From the IMG/VR virus record IMGVR_UViG_3300034082_002096: 64,000 nucleotides of DNA. One strand, written 5' to 3'. Origin of the DNA: an uncultured virus (IMG/VR IMGVR_UViG_3300034082_002096) (taxonomy: Duplodnaviria > Heunggongvirae > Uroviricota > Caudoviricetes). A program made the translations under genes and the position numbers. This document shows, in pieces, positions 3,191-61,359 of this stretch; the first letter of the stretch is position 1, and every line of letters starts with the position of its first letter. The notes below the pieces were generated by a model. The model was not told where the DNA came from. It did no database searches and was given only the letters and a program-made list of their open reading frames with translations.

Positions 3191-3661
3191 TTATTCCAAT
3201 ACATACACAACTGGTGTAAGATGAATTAGTCGATGTTCGATAATAGCGGAAATTACTTCCCACGAACCATTGCCTAGTCCAGCACCAATTTGTGGCATTG
3301 CAATCTGTGTAATTCCATATGTTTCAGTAAATCGGTTAATTCTAGTCATAGCATCATCAATAGCATCATAACTAACATACCTTACATCTTCACGACCAAA
3401 AAATTCTTGTGTGATTGCATTCACAATGATTTTATAATTGGCAAAATCCTTTACTCTATCACCACATGGAACTACAACTAACTTACCAAGTTTAAGCCCA
3501 TTCGTATTATGTTCATTAACATAACGCTCATATGCTTTTGGATATTTTTCACGAATGATCTTTGCAATTCCACTTCCCATTACACCTTGGGCATTGCATC
3601 CATGCACAATAGTTTGAATTTCTGTTTGAAACAGATCGCCTTTTCGATATTCAATTTTCAT
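3191..3661 (-). CDS. macro domain (ADP-ribose binding/hydrolase) protein
   Basis: GDLF...IVHGCNAQGVMGSGIA...AMPQIGAGLGNGSW. Confidence 0.92.
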   Translation of the reverse strand: MKIEYRKGDLFQTEIQTIVHGCNAQGVMGSGIAKIIREKYPKAYERYVNEHNTNGLKLGKLVVVPCGDRVKDFANYKIIVNAITQEFFGREDVRYVSYDAIDDAMTRINRFTETYGITQIAMPQIGAGLGNGSWEVISAIIEHRLIHLTPVVYVLE

Positions 3662-4466: not shown

Positions 4467-4541
4467 TGGTGGCGTGAGTAGGATTCGAACCTACGACCGA
4501 GTGAATATGAGTCACTTGCTCTACCACTGAGCTATCACGCC
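4467..4541 (-). tRNA. tRNA-Met/Ile2(CAT)
   Basis: Anticodon arm AGTGA-CT CAT AT-TCACT; CCA. Confidence 0.88.
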
Positions 4542-12901: not shown

Positions 12902-12978
12902 TGGTGGTCTAGGTGGGACTCGAACCCACGATCAATGATGTTAGGGCACCATCGCATTAGCCGCTATGCTACAAGACC
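12902..12978 (-). tRNA. tRNA with abnormal anticodon loop (CCT or CTA; identity unresolved)
   Basis: Normal D-arm, T-arm and CCA; anticodon arm ATGGT-GCCCTAAC-ATCAT (8-nt loop). Confidence 0.7.
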
Positions 12979-14247: not shown

Positions 14248-15030
14248 TTACTTATGTTCGTAATCTATAATTGCAGTTACTAGTTTTTGCATATCACATG
14301 CATAAAATCCAGCACAATTCATAGTATTTAATTCTATAACTTTATAGCCATCATCTGTTAATGCAACATCTATAACATATGGTTGTTCAATATTTTTGTT
14401 CAACATATCAACAAATGTTTGTGCAATGTCTATATTTTGATCAGTTTCGCCATATACTACTCGTTTGCCAAGTTTATATTGTGATCCAGTTACTACTTTG
14501 CCATCGACAACGAAATATCTGTATTCATTATATATTTTTTTCAAACTGGCACACATTACTTCAGTATTTTCAGTTAATGTGGTTCCATTATCAAACAATT
14601 TAAGATTAATAATACGATGTTGCCATTCTTTTAGCTGATTTATAGACTTAATCATTCCTGCAAATTCTTTGCCATCGTGATTAGGACGAATAAAAAATTC
14701 TTCTGAATTAGGAACAATATCACCAAATTTACCGAAAATAGCATCATGATTTAATACATGATCGCCTAATGCGTCAATTAATGAAGTATAAGGAAACCAT
14801 TCAATATCATATACACCGGGATTCCATCCTTTACGAATTGCTAATTTACGCATAGAATATGCACCAAAACATATTACTTTGTTATCAGCAATGTCAACAT
14901 CAGGAATAATTTCTCCTACAAATGGAACAACTTTTACCAGATCAAATGTTTGATCAAACTTTTTAATATTTTCGATCAATGATACAAATTTATCTTCATT
15001 TCCGATATTTTCTTGTATTAGCCAATGCAT
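14248..15030 (-). CDS. ATP-grasp protein (DUF4343/R2K-like)
   Basis: FIRP...K.F.G, EYRYFVV, YVIDVA and VIELN...AGFY motifs. Confidence 0.85.
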   Translation of the reverse strand: MHWLIQENIGNEDKFVSLIENIKKFDQTFDLVKVVPFVGEIIPDVDIADNKVICFGAYSMRKLAIRKGWNPGVYDIEWFPYTSLIDALGDHVLNHDAIFGKFGDIVPNSEEFFIRPNHDGKEFAGMIKSINQLKEWQHRIINLKLFDNGTTLTENTEVMCASLKKIYNEYRYFVVDGKVVTGSQYKLGKRVVYGETDQNIDIAQTFVDMLNKNIEQPYVIDVALTDDGYKVIELNTMNCAGFYACDMQKLVTAIIDYEHK

Positions 15031-15051
15031 ATTATTTCCTTTTTAAATTTT

Positions 15052-15167
15052 ACTGGAACATATTTTTGACGGTTGTTCTACCACTGAACTACATCTATCA
15101 TGTGTGATAAATGGTAGGATTCGAACCTACGACCCACTGTTTGTTTAAAAAATGCTGTAATGTTCCA
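15052..15167 (-). ncRNA. stem-closed RNA carrying a circularly permuted tRNA elbow (Y-RNA-like)
   Basis: TGGAACAT-TACAGCA, then T-arm GTAGG-TTCGAAT-CCTAC, looped acceptor CATTTATCA-CACA-TGATAGATG, D-arm GTTC-AGTGGTA-GAAC, then ATGTTCCA-GT. Confidence 0.85.
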
Positions 15168-15178
15168 AATTGATATAT

Positions 15179-15270
15179 TGGCGGAAGAGGTGGGATTTGA
15201 ACCCACGGGAGGCTTTCACCTCCGTCCGCTTTCAAGGCGGATGCAATCAGCCAGACTCTGCCACCCTTCC
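15179..15270 (-). tRNA. tRNA-Ser(TGA)
   Basis: Anticodon arm TCCGC-CT TGA AA-GCGGA; long variable arm; GCCA end. Confidence 0.92.
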
Positions 15271-21787: not shown

Positions 21788-21908
21788 TGCCCCCACGACG
21801 ACTTGAACGCCGGACCCCCTGATTATGGAAATACACCTTGTGAACTTATCGTTAAATATTTCTCGTGTATTTTCAAATCAGGTGCTCTACCAACTGAGCT
21901 ATAAGGGC
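21785..21908 (-). tRNA. tRNA-Thr(TGT) interrupted by a 48-nt insert (21826-21873) within the anticodon
   Basis: Removing the insert gives a canonical 76-mer: GCCCTTATAGCTCAGTTGGTAGAGCACCTGATTTGTAATCAGGGGGTCCGGCGTTCAAGTCGTCGTGGGGGCACCA. Confidence 0.85.
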
Positions 21909-22278: not shown

Positions 22279-22288
22279 TAATTCGTTT

Positions 22289-22415
22289 ACTGGATCAACT
22301 TTTATACGGCGTCCTACCACTAGACGAACTGCCCATAATAATTATGGTGGGCAGTAGAGGAATCGAACCTCTGTTCACGGCTTGGAATGCAATTAATTGT
22401 TGCTGTAATGATCCA
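22289..22415 (-). ncRNA. stem-closed CAGC-motif RNA carrying a permuted tRNA
   Basis: TGGATCA-TTACAGCAA, TTCCAA, T-arm AGAGG-TTCGATT-CCTCT, ACTGCCCA-CCA-linker-TGGGCAGT, D-arm, TGATCCA-GT. Confidence 0.85.
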
Positions 22416-22618
22416 AAATTCTATTATACTGTTTGTCTAATTTTTTCTGCAACATGAGAAGGTTGAACACGCACTTCATAATCATCAATAACATAACCTA
22501 CTTCTGACTTATCCCATGCACCAACGCCTTTTACTTTGACGTGAGTTTTACCAATAACATATTCGTATTCTTTTTCGTCTACTGTAATCTTGCGGTAAGC
22601 CATAGTATTTCCCTTCTT

Positions 22619-23355: not shown

Positions 23356-23363
23356 GTATTATA

Positions 23364-23425
23364 TCAGGATGATTGGTTGCTTTTTTGATTACAAGTCAAG
23401 TGCATTGATTTGCTGAAATCATCCT
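23364..23425 (-). ncRNA. stem-closed CAGC-motif RNA carrying a Thr(TGT) anticodon stem-loop
   Basis: AGGATGATT-TCAGCAAA ... TTGA-CT TGT AA-TCAA ... AATCATCCT-GA. Confidence 0.8.
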
Positions 23426-23480
23426 TATAACATTTAATGAGAATAACTAACAGTTAGTCTTATAAAATATTATAGTATTA

Positions 23481-23818: not shown

Positions 23819-23886
23819 ACAAAGAATGTTCTTGTTTTCGTATTATCATACTAACTCATATTGAAGTTAGTGTCAAGAGGTATTTT

Positions 23887-23942
23887 ACAGGATCATCTTG
23901 GTTTTTTCAAATAAAAAATTTAAGATTTGCGGAACTGATCCT
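23887..23942 (-). ncRNA. stem-closed CCGC-motif RNA
   Basis: AGGATCA-GTTCCGCAAA ... TTAAA-TTTTTTA-TTTGA ... TGATCCT-GT. Confidence 0.75.
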
Positions 23943-23951
23943 AAGTATTAC

Positions 23952-24003
23952 ACAGAATAATTTTGTTTGTATTTGCGAACATTAATGTTGCTGAAATTAT
24001 TCT
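23952..24003 (-). ncRNA. stem-closed CAGC-motif RNA (short)
   Basis: AGAATAATT-TCAGCAAC ... AATTATTCT-GT. Confidence 0.7.
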
Positions 24004-24016
24004 TAGAATTTTTAAT

Positions 24017-24091
24017 TGGAGCGGGTAGTGGGAATCAAACCCACTTCATTAGCTTGGAAGGCTAAGGCAACAATCAATATACCATACCCGC
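24017..24091 (-). tRNA. tRNA-Gly(TCC), second and atypical copy
   Basis: Same acceptor and anticodon arm as the 11427 copy; D-loop lacks GG; T-loop TTTGATT. Confidence 0.85.
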
Positions 24092-24311
24092 AATTTGCCC
24101 ACCATTTTTGGTTCATAATAAAAATGGTGGAAAAGTAATTTTCATTATGCTAGGATTCGAACCTAGACCATAGTGCTACTATGGAACCGATACAACTACT
24201 AATCACTTCTATTTAATAGCAGGGGCAACCGTCATAGTTTGCACTACGCTGCCGTTGTTATCCCCCGCCCGTGTTCATACCGAGATATGAACAATTTTTT
24301 ATAACATTTTG

Positions 24312-24385: not shown

Positions 24386-24400
24386 GCAAAATGTTATATT

Positions 24401-24460
24401 ACAGGATCATTTGTTTTTCAAACCAAAATTGAATTTTTATAACTTTGCGGAACTGATCCT
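24401..24460 (-). ncRNA. stem-closed CCGC-motif RNA carrying a Gln(TTG) anticodon stem-loop
   Basis: AGGATCA-GTTCCGCAAA ... TTCAA-TT TTG GT-TTGAA ... TGATCCT-GT. Confidence 0.8.
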
Positions 24461-24524
24461 TAACTTTTGTGATAGATTACTCTATCAAATTCTTGCGGTT
24501 TACAGGTTTATCGCCCTACGCTAG

Positions 24525-53079: not shown

Positions 53080-54528
53080 TTACAAAATCAATTTAGCACG
53101 ATCACGAATTTCTTCTAAACTGTCATCTATCAGAAGTTTGCCGTTAAGATATACAGAACGAAGAAGATTAGTAGCACCAAATTTAGTAGCATAATCTTCT
53201 GATACTGTAATAACAGATGGACCTTTAGTAATACCTGTTTCGGTGATTTCAACAGAATTTGTATTATCAATTAGGACAAGACGACCTTTTTTAGAAGTTT
53301 TGCCTTTATCGGTAATTGGGTCTTTGTATACATCAACCCATTCTCCATTAATCAACGCCGCAGAACATTTCATAGCAAACTTTTGATCATCACGTTGTGG
53401 TGCTTGTAACAATGCCCCACCCATGCCAAATGCTACGTTATCTGCAGAAAATCCATTTTGTTTTAGACTTTCTAGAATATCTGTTACTGTGTCGATATTG
53501 ATACCATCGCCTTGGATGATACGAACAACATTCAATACTTTATAGCCTTTGTCGTTAATTGTAGAACCAAATGTTTTGTCCAGAAGTTTTGCAACTTTAG
53601 TTACAACTTCTACTGGATCGCCAGAGTCTGGACGAATTACAATAGTTGCACCACTGTCTATTACTTCTTGGCGTAGTTCACCACCCCATAGATTTTCAAC
53701 AGCATTAAAAATATCATAAGAATCAGATACTACAGCTACGATACTTCCCGGTTTTGCAAAGTTACGCAGCATATTGCGATATGCTTGTACTTCATTTTCA
53801 CGGCCCCACGAAGTAATAGTAGAATGTTCAGCAGCAGGAATACTAAACCCTGCCATACGAGTATTGTAATATTTCCTATGGCCTACAATAGCACCAATAG
53901 TATCAGTTCCCATAAAGTTTACAAGATGGGCCATACCACCAATTTTTGCAGATTCTTTACTGGAAGCACCACGTGCACCAAAATCATGCAGTTTGAAGTT
54001 GATCAACGAAATATCACCAGTGTCCATTAGGTATTTTGCAATTACTTTTTTGATTTCTCGTGAAGTAGTAGCAACTGTTACTGGATACCAAATTGCACGA
54101 AGTAGTGCAGTTTCCAAGAAAGTGGTTAATGGAAAGCAAATTGGATCAGTATTTTCGATAGTTACCATAACATTGTGAACAGGAATTACTGTCCCTTCTG
54201 GAATAGCTTTGATTTCAACAGGCATAAAGCCATCATGAACTTTTACGATATGTTCCCACATTGCACGATTGAATGGTTCCCCATGTTCAGTCCAAATTTC
54301 TTCTGCAAAATCAATATCTTCCATAGTGATTCTTTTTAGCAGATATTCTTTGATGAACATTTGAATACCAAAGAATACGGTTTCATCATATTTGCCACCC
54401 CGGCTTTCGATGTAACTATATACTTTTGTTGTGCCTGTTGGGTATTGGACCGTCATTGATCCTTTATAGCTATCGCTGTCTACAATGATGCTATCAAAAA
54501 TAGCATTGTTATTAAAAAAATCAAACAT
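53080..54528 (-). CDS. nadV: nicotinamide phosphoribosyltransferase
   Basis: DSYK, YIESRGG, HDFGARG, GTDT, SIPAAEHS, VSDSYD, IRPDSGDP, GMGGALLQ and KDPITD.GK.SKKG motifs. Confidence 0.95.
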   Translation of the reverse strand: MFDFFNNNAIFDSIIVDSDSYKGSMTVQYPTGTTKVYSYIESRGGKYDETVFFGIQMFIKEYLLKRITMEDIDFAEEIWTEHGEPFNRAMWEHIVKVHDGFMPVEIKAIPEGTVIPVHNVMVTIENTDPICFPLTTFLETALLRAIWYPVTVATTSREIKKVIAKYLMDTGDISLINFKLHDFGARGASSKESAKIGGMAHLVNFMGTDTIGAIVGHRKYYNTRMAGFSIPAAEHSTITSWGRENEVQAYRNMLRNFAKPGSIVAVVSDSYDIFNAVENLWGGELRQEVIDSGATIVIRPDSGDPVEVVTKVAKLLDKTFGSTINDKGYKVLNVVRIIQGDGINIDTVTDILESLKQNGFSADNVAFGMGGALLQAPQRDDQKFAMKCSAALINGEWVDVYKDPITDKGKTSKKGRLVLIDNTNSVEITETGITKGPSVITVSEDYATKFGATNLLRSVYLNGKLLIDDSLEEIRDRAKLIL

Positions 54529-59475: not shown

Positions 59476-60306
59476 TCAACATGAATATGCAACAGGCCAA
59501 TTTCTTTTGTGGCGAGTTTTTTCATACTGTGCGACAATTTTAGCAACTACTTCATCACTAACAGATTTTCCTTCTAGAAAATCATCTAGATCATCATATG
59601 AAAAACCAAGAGCAACTTCGTCTGCAAGTTGTGGGCGAATTTCTTCTAAGTCAGCAGTTGGTGTCTTCGAATAAAGTTTTTCTGGAACCCCAATTGCTTC
59701 TGCTAATTTACGAACTTGCCTTTTGCTAAGACCATTTAATACAGTGATATCACATGCTTGATCGCCCCATTTGGTATAAAATGCAGGAACTAATTCAGAA
59801 TTATGATCAGTTCCTACTACAAGACAATTCCGCAAACCTGCAATTTCATATTGAGCAAGCATACGCATTCGTGCTTTGACGTTTCCTTTGTGGAAGTCAA
59901 GTAATCCACGATCAGAACATAAACCAGTCAATTGTGAATGAATAGAGTTAGTTGCAAGTTCGATACCAACTGTTATACGATAGTCTGGATTAATAAACTT
60001 CAATGCAGATTGTGCATCATCTTCGTCTTTTTGAATATCATAAGGAAGTCGAACTGCATAAAAATATGCAGCATATCCTTCATTCTGTAATTCAATGCAA
60101 GCAATCTGACATAGTTTTCCGGCAGTGGTAGAATCTACTCCACCACTAATACCTAAAACATATCCATTTAATTTTGAAGATTTTAGGTATTCTTTTAGAT
60201 AATCAATACGAAGTCTTGCTTCTTGTTTAAAGTCTATTGTTTCTGTTTCTCGCACTCCGTGAAGTGCGAGAATTTCCTGTGTTATTGTATTCATAATCTT
60301 ATCCAA
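59476..60306 (-). CDS. nadE: NH3-dependent NAD+ synthetase
   Basis: LGISGGVDS, RLPY..Q.DE.D, GNVKARMRM, GTDH, FYTKWGD and PTADLE motifs. Confidence 0.95.
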   Translation of the reverse strand: MDKIMNTITQEILALHGVRETETIDFKQEARLRIDYLKEYLKSSKLNGYVLGISGGVDSTTAGKLCQIACIELQNEGYAAYFYAVRLPYDIQKDEDDAQSALKFINPDYRITVGIELATNSIHSQLTGLCSDRGLLDFHKGNVKARMRMLAQYEIAGLRNCLVVGTDHNSELVPAFYTKWGDQACDITVLNGLSKRQVRKLAEAIGVPEKLYSKTPTADLEEIRPQLADEVALGFSYDDLDDFLEGKSVSDEVVAKIVAQYEKTRHKRNWPVAYSC

Positions 60307-60315
60307 TCTTCTAAA

Positions 60316-61359
60316 TTAATATGTTGGAATAAAACGTTTGATGATATGGTAATGGTCAAATGCCATCATTTCGCTAGTAACATCACTTAGTTTAACCCAT
60401 TCTGCATGTTTTGCATCATCCGAACCTTTTACTTTTGGCAACTTTTCATCGGGATATCCCAAATCAATATGGAAACCATGTGTAATAACACGTCCACGAG
60501 GATCGCGGTCAGGATGATCAAAAACTTCTATCGCTTTGATAGAACCTTTAAGAACCTTGTCAGGAACTTTTAGTTTTGTTTCTTCACGAAGTTCTTTAAT
60601 CATATTTTCTACGATAAATTTACCTTTATCAAGATACCCACCAGGGAGTGCCCAACAATCTTTGAATGGGAAACCTCCGCGTTTGATTAGAAGAACATAT
60701 CCACTTTGTGTAATAACCGCATCGGTAGTAACAAATACAGAAGGAAAGTTAAATCCCTTCATTTGTGACTTTTCACGGTATTCTTTGATTTGGTTATATT
60801 CTGCCTTCAACGATGGAAACCAATCGCCTTTAAGAAGAATACTATCTAATTCATGCCGTGTAGCAAGATGCATTTTATCTGCACTCATGAAAAACCGTTC
60901 ATCAGAAAAAAGGTCTTCACGAATATCAGTTGCATTAATGCCATCGACATTTGCAACTTCAACATGATCCCGCCAATCTGGAAAAATGTTTAGATAATAT
61001 GAAGAACTATCTTTGGAATGACCAATCAATCCAGCTTTTGTGCCAGTTTTAATTCCATTTACTACCGATTGAACCGCAGAAACCCAAGCATTATCGTCGT
61101 ATGGATAATCCATTACGCCTACGATCTTGATTCTGCTTGTATGAATATCAGAACGCAATGAGTAGGCAGATTCAATCATTGCCTTACGTTCTTGAAATGT
61201 AAATGGATTTTTTGTGCTACGTGGTTGAAAACTTGAACCCACGACTAGAACAACTTCTTTTGCTTGTTCTAGAGCGGCATCAATTACCGCTTTGTGTCCA
61301 TTGTGGAAAGGTTGAAACCTTCCACAAAAAACTAATGTATCATATTTTTCTTTTGCCAT
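60316..61359 (-). CDS. nadM: bifunctional NMN adenylyltransferase / Nudix ADP-ribose pyrophosphatase
   Basis: GRFQPFHNGH, KNPFT..ER, GH.KD.SS.YL, WALPGG...EL.EET, R..RGR.ITH and DDA motifs. Confidence 0.93.
   Translation of the reverse strand: MAKEKYDTLVFCGRFQPFHNGHKAVIDAALEQAKEVVLVVGSSFQPRSTKNPFTFQERKAMIESAYSLRSDIHTSRIKIVGVMDYPYDDNAWVSAVQSVVNGIKTGTKAGLIGHSKDSSSYYLNIFPDWRDHVEVANVDGINATDIREDLFSDERFFMSADKMHLATRHELDSILLKGDWFPSLKAEYNQIKEYREKSQMKGFNFPSVFVTTDAVITQSGYVLLIKRGGFPFKDCWALPGGYLDKGKFIVENMIKELREETKLKVPDKVLKGSIKAIEVFDHPDRDPRGRVITHGFHIDLGYPDEKLPKVKGSDDAKHAEWVKLSDVTSEMMAFDHYHIIKRFIPTY

Follow-up and report, generated by a model that had tools for sequence, protein, structure and literature searches.

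To our knowledge, the Y RNAs of bacteria and phages have been known solely as partners of TROVE-type Ro60 proteins. YrlA is a Y RNA that bears a tRNA-like module; for it, Chen et al. (2014, PMC4201824) describe the motif GNCGAAN0-1G near the 5' end as a putative Rsr site, genes within about 4 kb of a TROVE-domain Ro60 orthologue and on its strand, and an Rsr-bound RNA with pseudouridine (Psi55) and dihydrouridine (D) modifications, which in Mycobacterium smegmatis is cleaved by RNase P and receives an added CCA; the 22 phages of their Table S2 (phage G, CcrColossus, and 20 mycobacteriophages with a 552-aa Ro) are all TROVE-annotated cases. In Thermus phage phiLo, a Ro60-type ring is coded beside two Y-like RNAs, Yrl1 and Yrl2 (PMC12135203; PDB 9KOP, 9L5Y), which were chosen by a CGAA motif and a stem-bulge-stem shape, and the account of that choice mentions no tRNA-like domain. 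We have analyzed a stretch of 64,000 nt ("the window") from an uncultured virus of the Caudoviricetes (IMG/VR IMGVR_UViG_3300034082_002096), in which an RNA element at 15048..15169 on the minus strand (the flagged element) had been noticed. This element is probably a noncoding Y-RNA/YrlA-type RNA about 120 nt long, of a handle class other than that of YrlA, whose partner would be a phage protein of the DUF2828/DUF7788 family and not a TROVE-type Rsr.

A Y RNA with a tRNA-like module is an already known kind of molecule, also in phages. No paper was found on the CAGCA handle, its handle-only companions or the pairing with DUF2828/DUF7788 proteins, in a search that excluded the reviews PMC10870794 and PMC6047535 and Burroughs & Aravind 2016. 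The handle consists of the paired 5' and 3' ends and a UACAGCA bulge, and a complete tRNA elbow with T-arm, D-arm, and acceptor stem takes the place of a free anticodon loop. With this class, the YrlA-like tRNA mimics of phages without Ro60 gain a candidate partner, a family with a predicted Ro60 fold, and the recognisable handle together with two covariance models finds tRNA-like and handle-only RNAs below Rfam thresholds.

The tRNA-like element and its relation to YrlA

On direct reading of the minus strand (15169-15048), the parts of the flagged element follow one another from 5' to 3' as follows: the terminal-stem 5' strand UUGGAACAU (15160..15168), the conserved bulge UACAGCA (15153..15159), the 3' strand ACAGU of an anticodon-stem-like helix (15136..15140), the variable region GGGUC (15131..15135), the T-arm GUAGG-UUCGAAU-CCUAC (15114..15130), and an acceptor stem closed by its own loop (15092..15113; 9 bp including one G.U), which is composed of the 3' strand CAUUUAUCA (15105..15113), the loop CACA (15101..15104), and the 5' strand UGAUAGAUG (15092..15100). 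U8 and A9 (15091-15090), the D-arm GUUC-AGUGGUA-GAAC (15075..15089), A26 (15074), the anticodon-stem-like 5' strand ACCGU (15069..15073), and the terminal-stem 3' strand AUGUUCCAG with the tail UAAAA (15048..15061) complete the molecule. The variable region, T-arm and D-arm were also placed by alignment to YrlA, and the 3' strand and tail by folding, alignment and a covariance model (R2, described below). In the minimum free energy (MFE) fold the two RNA ends lie close together, 15168-15160 pairing with 15061-15053 over 9 bp, and the ACCGU/ACAGU helix has four of its five positions paired and one C.A. The nucleotides whose tertiary pairs make the elbow of tRNA are in place on direct reading (U8, A14, G15/C48, G18 and G19, U54/A58, and G53-C61). 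The folding z-score was -2.17; such modest scores are usual in A+T-rich tRNA-like RNAs. The initial annotation had listed every one of the arms in the order found here, and mentioned neither the strand nor the terminal stem, the second copy and the four handle-only RNAs described below.

The covariance-model check against YrlA that the initial annotation had proposed gave a weak, full-length match. Rfam YrlA (RF02553) aligned over its full length (model 1-114) with 30.9 bits (E 7e-5, 421 bases searched), well in the T, acceptor, and D parts and poorly in the handle, and this score is below the gathering score of 69 bits, at which an Rfam scan gave no match at the element; nor was the element called a tRNA by either ARAGORN or the Rfam tRNA model. 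The topology claimed earlier, a permuted tRNA module whose acceptor stem is closed by a loop, is borne out by the reading and this alignment: the YrlA tRNA-like domain is present with T and D stem-loops, the closed "AS" stem-loop between them, and the nucleotides of the tertiary pairs. The suspicion that the handle differs was also correct, as a regular-expression search found no GNCGAAN0-1G in the 65 nt upstream of the T-loop, where the 5' strand reads UUGGAACAUUACAGCAUUUUUUAAACAA. No TROVE domain (PF05731) was matched among the 72 open reading frames (ORFs) of at least 85 aa in the window. In its sub-threshold Rfam score, the lack of the GNCGAA motif, and the lack of a neighbouring TROVE gene, the element departs from YrlA in three defining features; because of the full-length YrlA alignment and the R2 score of 95.4 bits, it is more than a chance resemblance.

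The CAGCA handle class

In IMG/VR, a pattern consisting of a T-loop, 18-42 nt, and a D-loop matched at least 120 loci, and among the matches listed (120 loci and L123) the spacer was a hairpin of at least 7 bp, that is, a loop-closed acceptor, in 21 of 122. From 20 selected loci, 17 gave matches to Rfam YrlA, each with a sub-threshold score (29-48 bits). A TROVE protein was coded in 7 of 15 parent records and adjoined the RNA in six of those seven; these TROVE-linked RNAs have a GUUACUUCG-like or GNCGAA motif on their 5' side, whereas the flagged element and seven RNAs of TROVE-less records, which were found by a pattern without CAGCA, share a terminal stem that covaries and then (U/A)ACAGCA or UUCAGCA. 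When CAGCA was made part of a second pattern, 46 loci were matched, reduced to about 23 distinct true elements. The plan of the class is a terminal stem, the bulge (U/A)(A/U)CAGCA(A), an optional tRNA-like insert, a 3' linker rich in A, and a tail GU(U)A; the 3' ends of the relatives are similar (...CC(U/A)GU(U)AA), and both the flagged element and the second copy of the window fit this plan with more than 85 bits with R2. The RNAs with this handle lie mostly within tRNA arrays. In one IMG/VR contig (L149, record G007; relatives L172 and L188), five tRNA-like members were found in 5 kb among 12 tRNA genes, and their acceptor stems are all different, which suggests module diversification.

A covariance model (R1) was built from 20 elements, and 28 sequences were realigned with it (alignment A4). 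In A4, 88.3% of cells are paired, against 39-46% after sliding the partners by 1-3 columns; both sides have changed in 26 of 28 pairs, and the covariation score of 0.753 (at most 0.15 with slid partners) was reached by none of 500 shuffles. Compensatory changes occur in all seven modelled pairs of the terminal stem; the acceptor helix is 95.4% paired with seven of seven pairs covarying, the T and D helices are 99.3% and 94.6% paired, and the anticodon-stem-like helix is 68-82% paired with every pair covarying. CAGCA is kept in 27-28 of the 28 relatives; part of this set was gathered with the CAGCA pattern, and members recovered without recourse to it contain the motif as well. A second model, R2, was made from 27 sequences, none of them from the window, and gave the flagged element 95.4 bits (E 4.7e-14, whole window), against 102.6 bits with R1. 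Judged from these comparisons of sequence, the flagged element belongs to a distinct and widespread handle class, apart from canonical YrlA. The T, acceptor, and D helices also emerged from MAFFT and RNAalifold alone, which missed the terminal stem owing to register shifts. A crude scan for the handle by regular expression plus stem gave 1.4 background matches per shuffled strand and missed known members, and the covariance models were used instead.

That the element is a functionless, decayed relic of two neighbouring tRNA genes, a scar of deletion or recombination, would suit the dense tRNA array and the similarity of its T-arm half to a tRNA-Met of the window (4467-4541, score 22/27, the best match), and yet the 9-bp acceptor hairpin, the terminal stem, and the compensatory changes make this hardly credible. 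A stricter pattern containing the element's own T- and D-arms found only the same phage fragment and seven ordinary adjacent tRNA-Arg/tRNA-Gly pairs, and truly adjacent tRNAs found by such a pattern show no complementarity of this kind.

The second tRNA-like copy (22285..22417, minus strand) lies directly after a small ORF, was never in any seed, and scored 83.2 bits with R1 and 85.9 bits with R2 (E 2e-12); its stem is GGAUCA/UGAUCC and its bulge UUACAGCA. The acceptor reads ACUGCCC-A-CCA-UAAUUAUUAU-GGGCAGU, with a discriminator A, CCA, and a 10-nt spacer. Among the 28 members, 10 have N-CCA in the acceptor loop exactly after a 7-bp 3' strand, followed by a spacer of at most 22 nt, where about 0.4 of 28 would be expected by chance; this points to opening of the acceptor loop in many members, plausibly as in the YrlA of M. 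smegmatis, by analogy. The flagged copy has no N-CCA and reads C-ACA within an 8-nt closure. The earlier statement that the RNA cannot be aminoacylated unless cleaved is fair for the flagged copy, and needs qualification for the 10 relatives with a discriminator, CCA and a spacer.

Circularly permuted tRNA genes, as in Cyanidioschyzon merolae, and two-piece tmRNA genes have the 3' half first and an intervening loop, and in the permuted tRNAs a 7-nt anticodon loop is present after re-joining. The present RNAs resemble them in that the T-arm and acceptor 3' strand precede the acceptor 5' strand and that some members have a CCA-bearing loop, and differ in having no anticodon loop, no mRNA-like domain, and ends closed by a protein-type handle; the Rfam model tmRNA_permuted (RF04321) gave only a partial match of 14.2 bits (gathering score 47). 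A gene of the red-alga type, matured via a circular intermediate to a functional tRNA, would accord with the order of the halves, with the discriminator and CCA at the expected place in some relatives including the second copy, and with the RNA ligase and CCA-adding enzyme coded by this phage. It is nevertheless very improbable, as the "anticodon stem" continues as a helix with a bulge, which the RNA ends close, the loop of the flagged copy is 4 nt long and without CCA, and the same handle exists without any tRNA part; ARAGORN, which may not detect permuted genes, made no call here.

Such handle-only RNAs appeared as four weak full-model matches of R2 (58-68 nt, 24.5-29.3 bits) in spacers of the tRNA array of the window, with a stem AGGAUxx, a bulge UUCAGCAA or UUCCGCAA, an A-rich linker, and a tail CUGUAA. 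All are on the minus strand: 23358..23430 (stem AGGAUGAU/AUCAUCCU, bulge UUCAGCAA, no tRNA module; 29.3 bits with R2), 23881..23947 and 24395..24465 (both with stem AGGAUCA/UGAUCCU and bulge GUUCCGCAA; placed by R2, R3 and alignment), and 23946..24008 (stem AGAAUAAU/AUUAUUCU, bulge UUCAGCAA; 28.1 bits with R2). A covariance model of these four RNAs (R3) gave 63.7 bits for the first, a seed member, and did not list the one at 23946..24008 despite its seed membership. In other phages R3 found RNAs of the same design with covarying stems, often directly beside a gene of the Ro-like family described in the next section (L164 has three around it; in G004 (L198) and L148 the RNA is directly upstream), and further matches in the cultured phages LAh_8, RSP15, and FBKp34. 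The pair of tRNA-like and handle-only RNAs resembles YrlA and YrlB of Salmonella and M. smegmatis, YrlB being without the module, and argues that the handle is a protein-binding module and the tRNA-like domain an optional effector module.

Shorter variants with a "half-tRNA" look were observed in LAh_8 (L236) and PX29 (L234) of Aeromonas and in FBKp34 (L244) of Klebsiella; they have the handle, a T-arm, and an acceptor 3' strand with ACCA or GCCA, and no clear acceptor 5' strand or D-arm.

A candidate Ro-like partner

When the ORFs that lie at most 2.5 kb from any of 16 class members were clustered, one family of about 470 aa was found at 8 of the 16 loci on the strand of the RNA. It corresponds to Pfam DUF2828 plus DUF7788 and to PHROG 850 ("RNA-binding protein"), and is named "Ro-like RNA-binding protein" in SEA-PHAGES. 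Eight records with the RNA class are near-complete, i.e., 90% or more (G004, G005, G017, G018, G019, G021, G022, and G023), and DUF2828/DUF7788 was present in all eight, in seven by PF25043 and in G022 by a divergent member of 573 aa, whereas it was found in none of three records without the class (G003, G031, and G032). TROVE was present in none of the eight.

The family has the predicted fold of a full-length Ro60-like protein, ring plus vWA. In the AlphaFold2 model of the G004 protein, a helical-repeat ring is followed by a vWA/MIDAS domain, and the best 13 listed Foldseek matches are all Ro60/TROVE proteins (Thermus phage phiLo, Xenopus, human, and Deinococcus; E 4e-9 to 3e-6). With VIA-align, ten Ro60 entries gave Z scores of 18.5-13.1 with 379-392 residues aligned (about 27-486), against at most 12.6 for entries with vWA only, and the Ro60 of phiLo was the best structural match (Z 18.5). 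The columns of the DxSxS signature are invariant in alignment A2 (D291, S293, and S295). The link is barely visible in sequence: TROVE (PF05731) matched none of eight neighbour proteins at E of 0.01 or less, one weak vWA_Ro60 match had E 0.0022, and the profile of the family matched the Ro60 sequences of PDB at E 0.6. The system is similar to that of phiLo in having a phage ring of predicted Ro60 type and Y-like RNAs beside the gene, and different in that the phiLo protein is TROVE, matched by the present profile at E 0.6 only. Compared with YrlA, which is likewise known from phages and bacteria and accompanied by a module-less RNA, the flagged RNA has (U)ACAGCA in place of GNCGAAN0-1G, sits within a tRNA array without a TROVE neighbour, and is of a class that co-occurs with DUF2828/DUF7788 proteins.

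These comparisons also bear on the possibility that the element is a canonical YrlA bound by a TROVE-type Rsr/Ro60 coded elsewhere in the phage or by the host. The shared topology and full-length Rfam alignment would fit, as would the TROVE genes adjoining such RNAs in other phages (six of 15 records, and CcrColossus, whose gp139 is TROVE by Pfam and whose RNAs have no GNCGAA motif). We regard it as quite improbable in view of the score of 30.9 bits against a cut-off of 69, the missing GNCGAAN0-1G, the lack of a TROVE gene within 64 kb and in the eight near-complete genomes with this handle class, and the other 5' motif of the TROVE-linked RNAs.

The family is also present in cultured phages, several with laboratory strains as hosts. 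By tblastn it was found in 710 of 50,697 deposited phage records, including Felix O1-like phages, KVP40-like vibriophages, and mycobacteriophages, under the annotations "RNA-binding protein", "vWFA protein", or "DUF2828", and, in mycobacteriophages, "Ro-like RNA binding protein". Twenty complete cultured genomes were searched with R2 and PF25043, and the matches were inspected. Among 14 DUF7788-positive phages, 11 have an R2 match at E of 1e-3 or less and 10 have a CAGCA-type handle, mostly 0.1-5 kb from the gene (Lolly9, UAB_Phi87, FBKp34, phiM12, RSP15, VRE9_2, LPCS28, PX29, LAh_8, and, in a variant form, ValKK3); the CAGCA handle was found in none of six DUF7788-negative phages, two of which, CcrColossus (with TROVE) and RcXuper, have permuted tRNA-like RNAs with other handles. 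The one-sided exact p of about 0.005 for 10/14 versus 0/6 is indicative only, because selection of the two groups followed different routes and the phages are not independent of one another. In mycobacteriophage Lolly9, the RNA follows at about 100 nt from gene 54, whose product, named "Ro-like RNA binding protein", has both DUF2828 and DUF7788, and the GenBank record annotates the protein and has no RNA feature in that gap. This mycobacteriophage protein (gp54) is of the same family as those of the metagenomic phages; LeBron gp53, likened to it by annotation, is described as toxic on overexpression (PMC13148394). In the Felix O1-like UAB_Phi87, the RNA is flanked by tRNA-Asp and tRNA-Lys and lies about 1 kb downstream of the gene. 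This RNA (L205 6386-6519, NC_027360.1) lies under a hypothetical coding sequence of the opposite strand, Phi87_08, which may be a mis-call.

By analogy with Ro60 and Y RNAs as described in PMC4201824, PMC12135203, and PMC7824862, the ring protein would bind the handle (stem base, ACAGCA bulge, and GU(U)A tail), and the exposed tRNA-like module may recruit tRNA-recognising enzymes or an exoribonuclease to the particle, candidates being RNase P, the CCA-adding enzyme and the RNA ligase or RlaP of the phage, and host PNPase. In phages that have tRNA sets and RNA-repair genes of their own, the outcome would be that tRNA and other structured RNA are surveyed or repaired during infection, and the handle-only RNAs of the same array may act as module-less competitors or regulators, like YrlB.

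Several points weigh against this reading. No DUF2828/DUF7788-like ORF was found in the window by six-frame hmmsearch, nor is one present in a 28.5-kb fragment of the same phage (G001); since the window has no such gene, the partner in this phage, presumably coded outside the window, is an extrapolation. Two orphan ORFs of 614 and 672 aa were considered as hidden Ro-like proteins and rejected (hhalign probability 0.25%; Atlas neighbours PcfJ-like and DUF4116-like). Linkage is loose, because the tRNA-like copies are about 47 kb from the gene in G004 and about 17-20 kb in G005 and G017. The DUF7788-positive Campylobacter phage F355, Staphylococcus phage S-CoN_Ph11, and Listeria phage LP-083-2 gave no R2 match, the R2 match of FNU2 (also DUF7788-positive) is without the motif, and co-occurrence in large, tRNA-rich phages is confounded by shared ancestry. 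The AlphaFold2 model (predicted local distance difference test, pLDDT, 77.9) was computed from a 12-sequence alignment. A4 and A5 (the R1-guided alignment of R2) were fitted to a model, which favours pairing, the 20 seeds of R1 included the flagged element, and part of the RNA set was gathered with a CAGCA-containing pattern.

The lack of a partner gene in the window is what would be expected of a free-standing tRNA mimic without any Ro-like protein, which would act either to decoy or soak up host enzymes that bind tRNA or defence nucleases that target it, or as a structured mark (RNase P/RNase E site) for processing of the polycistronic transcript of the tRNA array. The setting agrees with it: the element begins 9 nt after a tRNA-Ser(UGA) with encoded CCA (15179..15270, minus strand) and 17 nt separate its end from the start codon of an R2K ATP-grasp gene (Pfam R2K_3/R2K_2; 14248..15030, minus strand), and scans for promoters and terminators yielded no more than shuffled sequence did and no signal particular to the element. 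The intact tRNA core, the N-CCA plus spacer in 10 of 28 members, and the YrlA of M. smegmatis as an RNase P substrate (PMC4201824) are further points for it. We consider it rather unlikely, because the conserved and covarying ACAGCA handle, the handle-only RNAs without a tRNA part, and the co-occurrence with the Ro-like family (8/8; 10/14 versus 0/6) would be left unexplained. The ATP-grasp gene is context only, as two of two distant relatives (L125 and L126) have no such RNA alongside. One metatranscriptome run contained a single 209-nt contig of a 93%-identical relative, which covers only 14865-15070 and is informative neither on transcription of the element nor on its ends.

The reading as a handle-class RNA with a DUF2828/DUF7788 partner could be extended to a second Ro/Y-RNA system in many large phages, with the DUF2828/DUF7788 ring and CAGCA-handle RNAs spread across the tRNA array, in which RNase P together with 3' processing would open the acceptor loop of the tRNA-like members and the ring would hold a split tRNA with a free CCA end and no anticodon. 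We think this extension unlikely. If it were true, the protein-anchored acceptor arm could be charged, or could bait host toxins or repair enzymes directed at acceptor ends, and the system would be an organiser of tRNA defence or repair, not a general RNA-decay cofactor.

The window and its tRNA array

The source phage is A+T-rich. The window has rIIA and rIIB (PHROGs), its rIIA reaching no more than 43% identity with the rIIA of any phage deposited, and near-identical DNA in deposited phages is limited to tRNA-sized matches. The element of the 28.5-kb fragment G001 is identical to the flagged one. Exact 30-mers from the window end gave no extending contig among the viral and metagenome contigs searched. 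The window also codes for an RNA ligase, an RlaP nucleotidyltransferase, a CCA-adding enzyme, and PTH2. A set of genes for NAD salvage and ADP-ribose adjoins the tRNA array, all on the minus strand: Sir2 (442-1128), Macro (3191-3661), NAMPT-like (53080-54528), NAD synthase (59476-60306), and NMNAT-Nudix (60316-61359).

All 25 tRNA genes called by ARAGORN in the window are on the minus strand, as is the flagged element. One of its calls, at 12902-12978 (minus strand), is a tRNA-??? with a two-letter anticodon "ct" and has an Rfam tRNA match of 50.7 bits. Two further Rfam tRNA matches on the minus strand, not in the ARAGORN list, are at 21788-21908 (121 nt, 50.1 bits) and 2353-2460 (108 nt, 37.9 bits) and may be tRNA genes with insertions or introns. 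Next to a tRNA-Gly, at 24077-24202 (minus strand), a region was observed in which a hairpin precedes a perfect T-arm (CUAGGUUCGAAUCCUAG) and a long insert comes after it; the region matched R1 and R2 weakly, at 25 bits.

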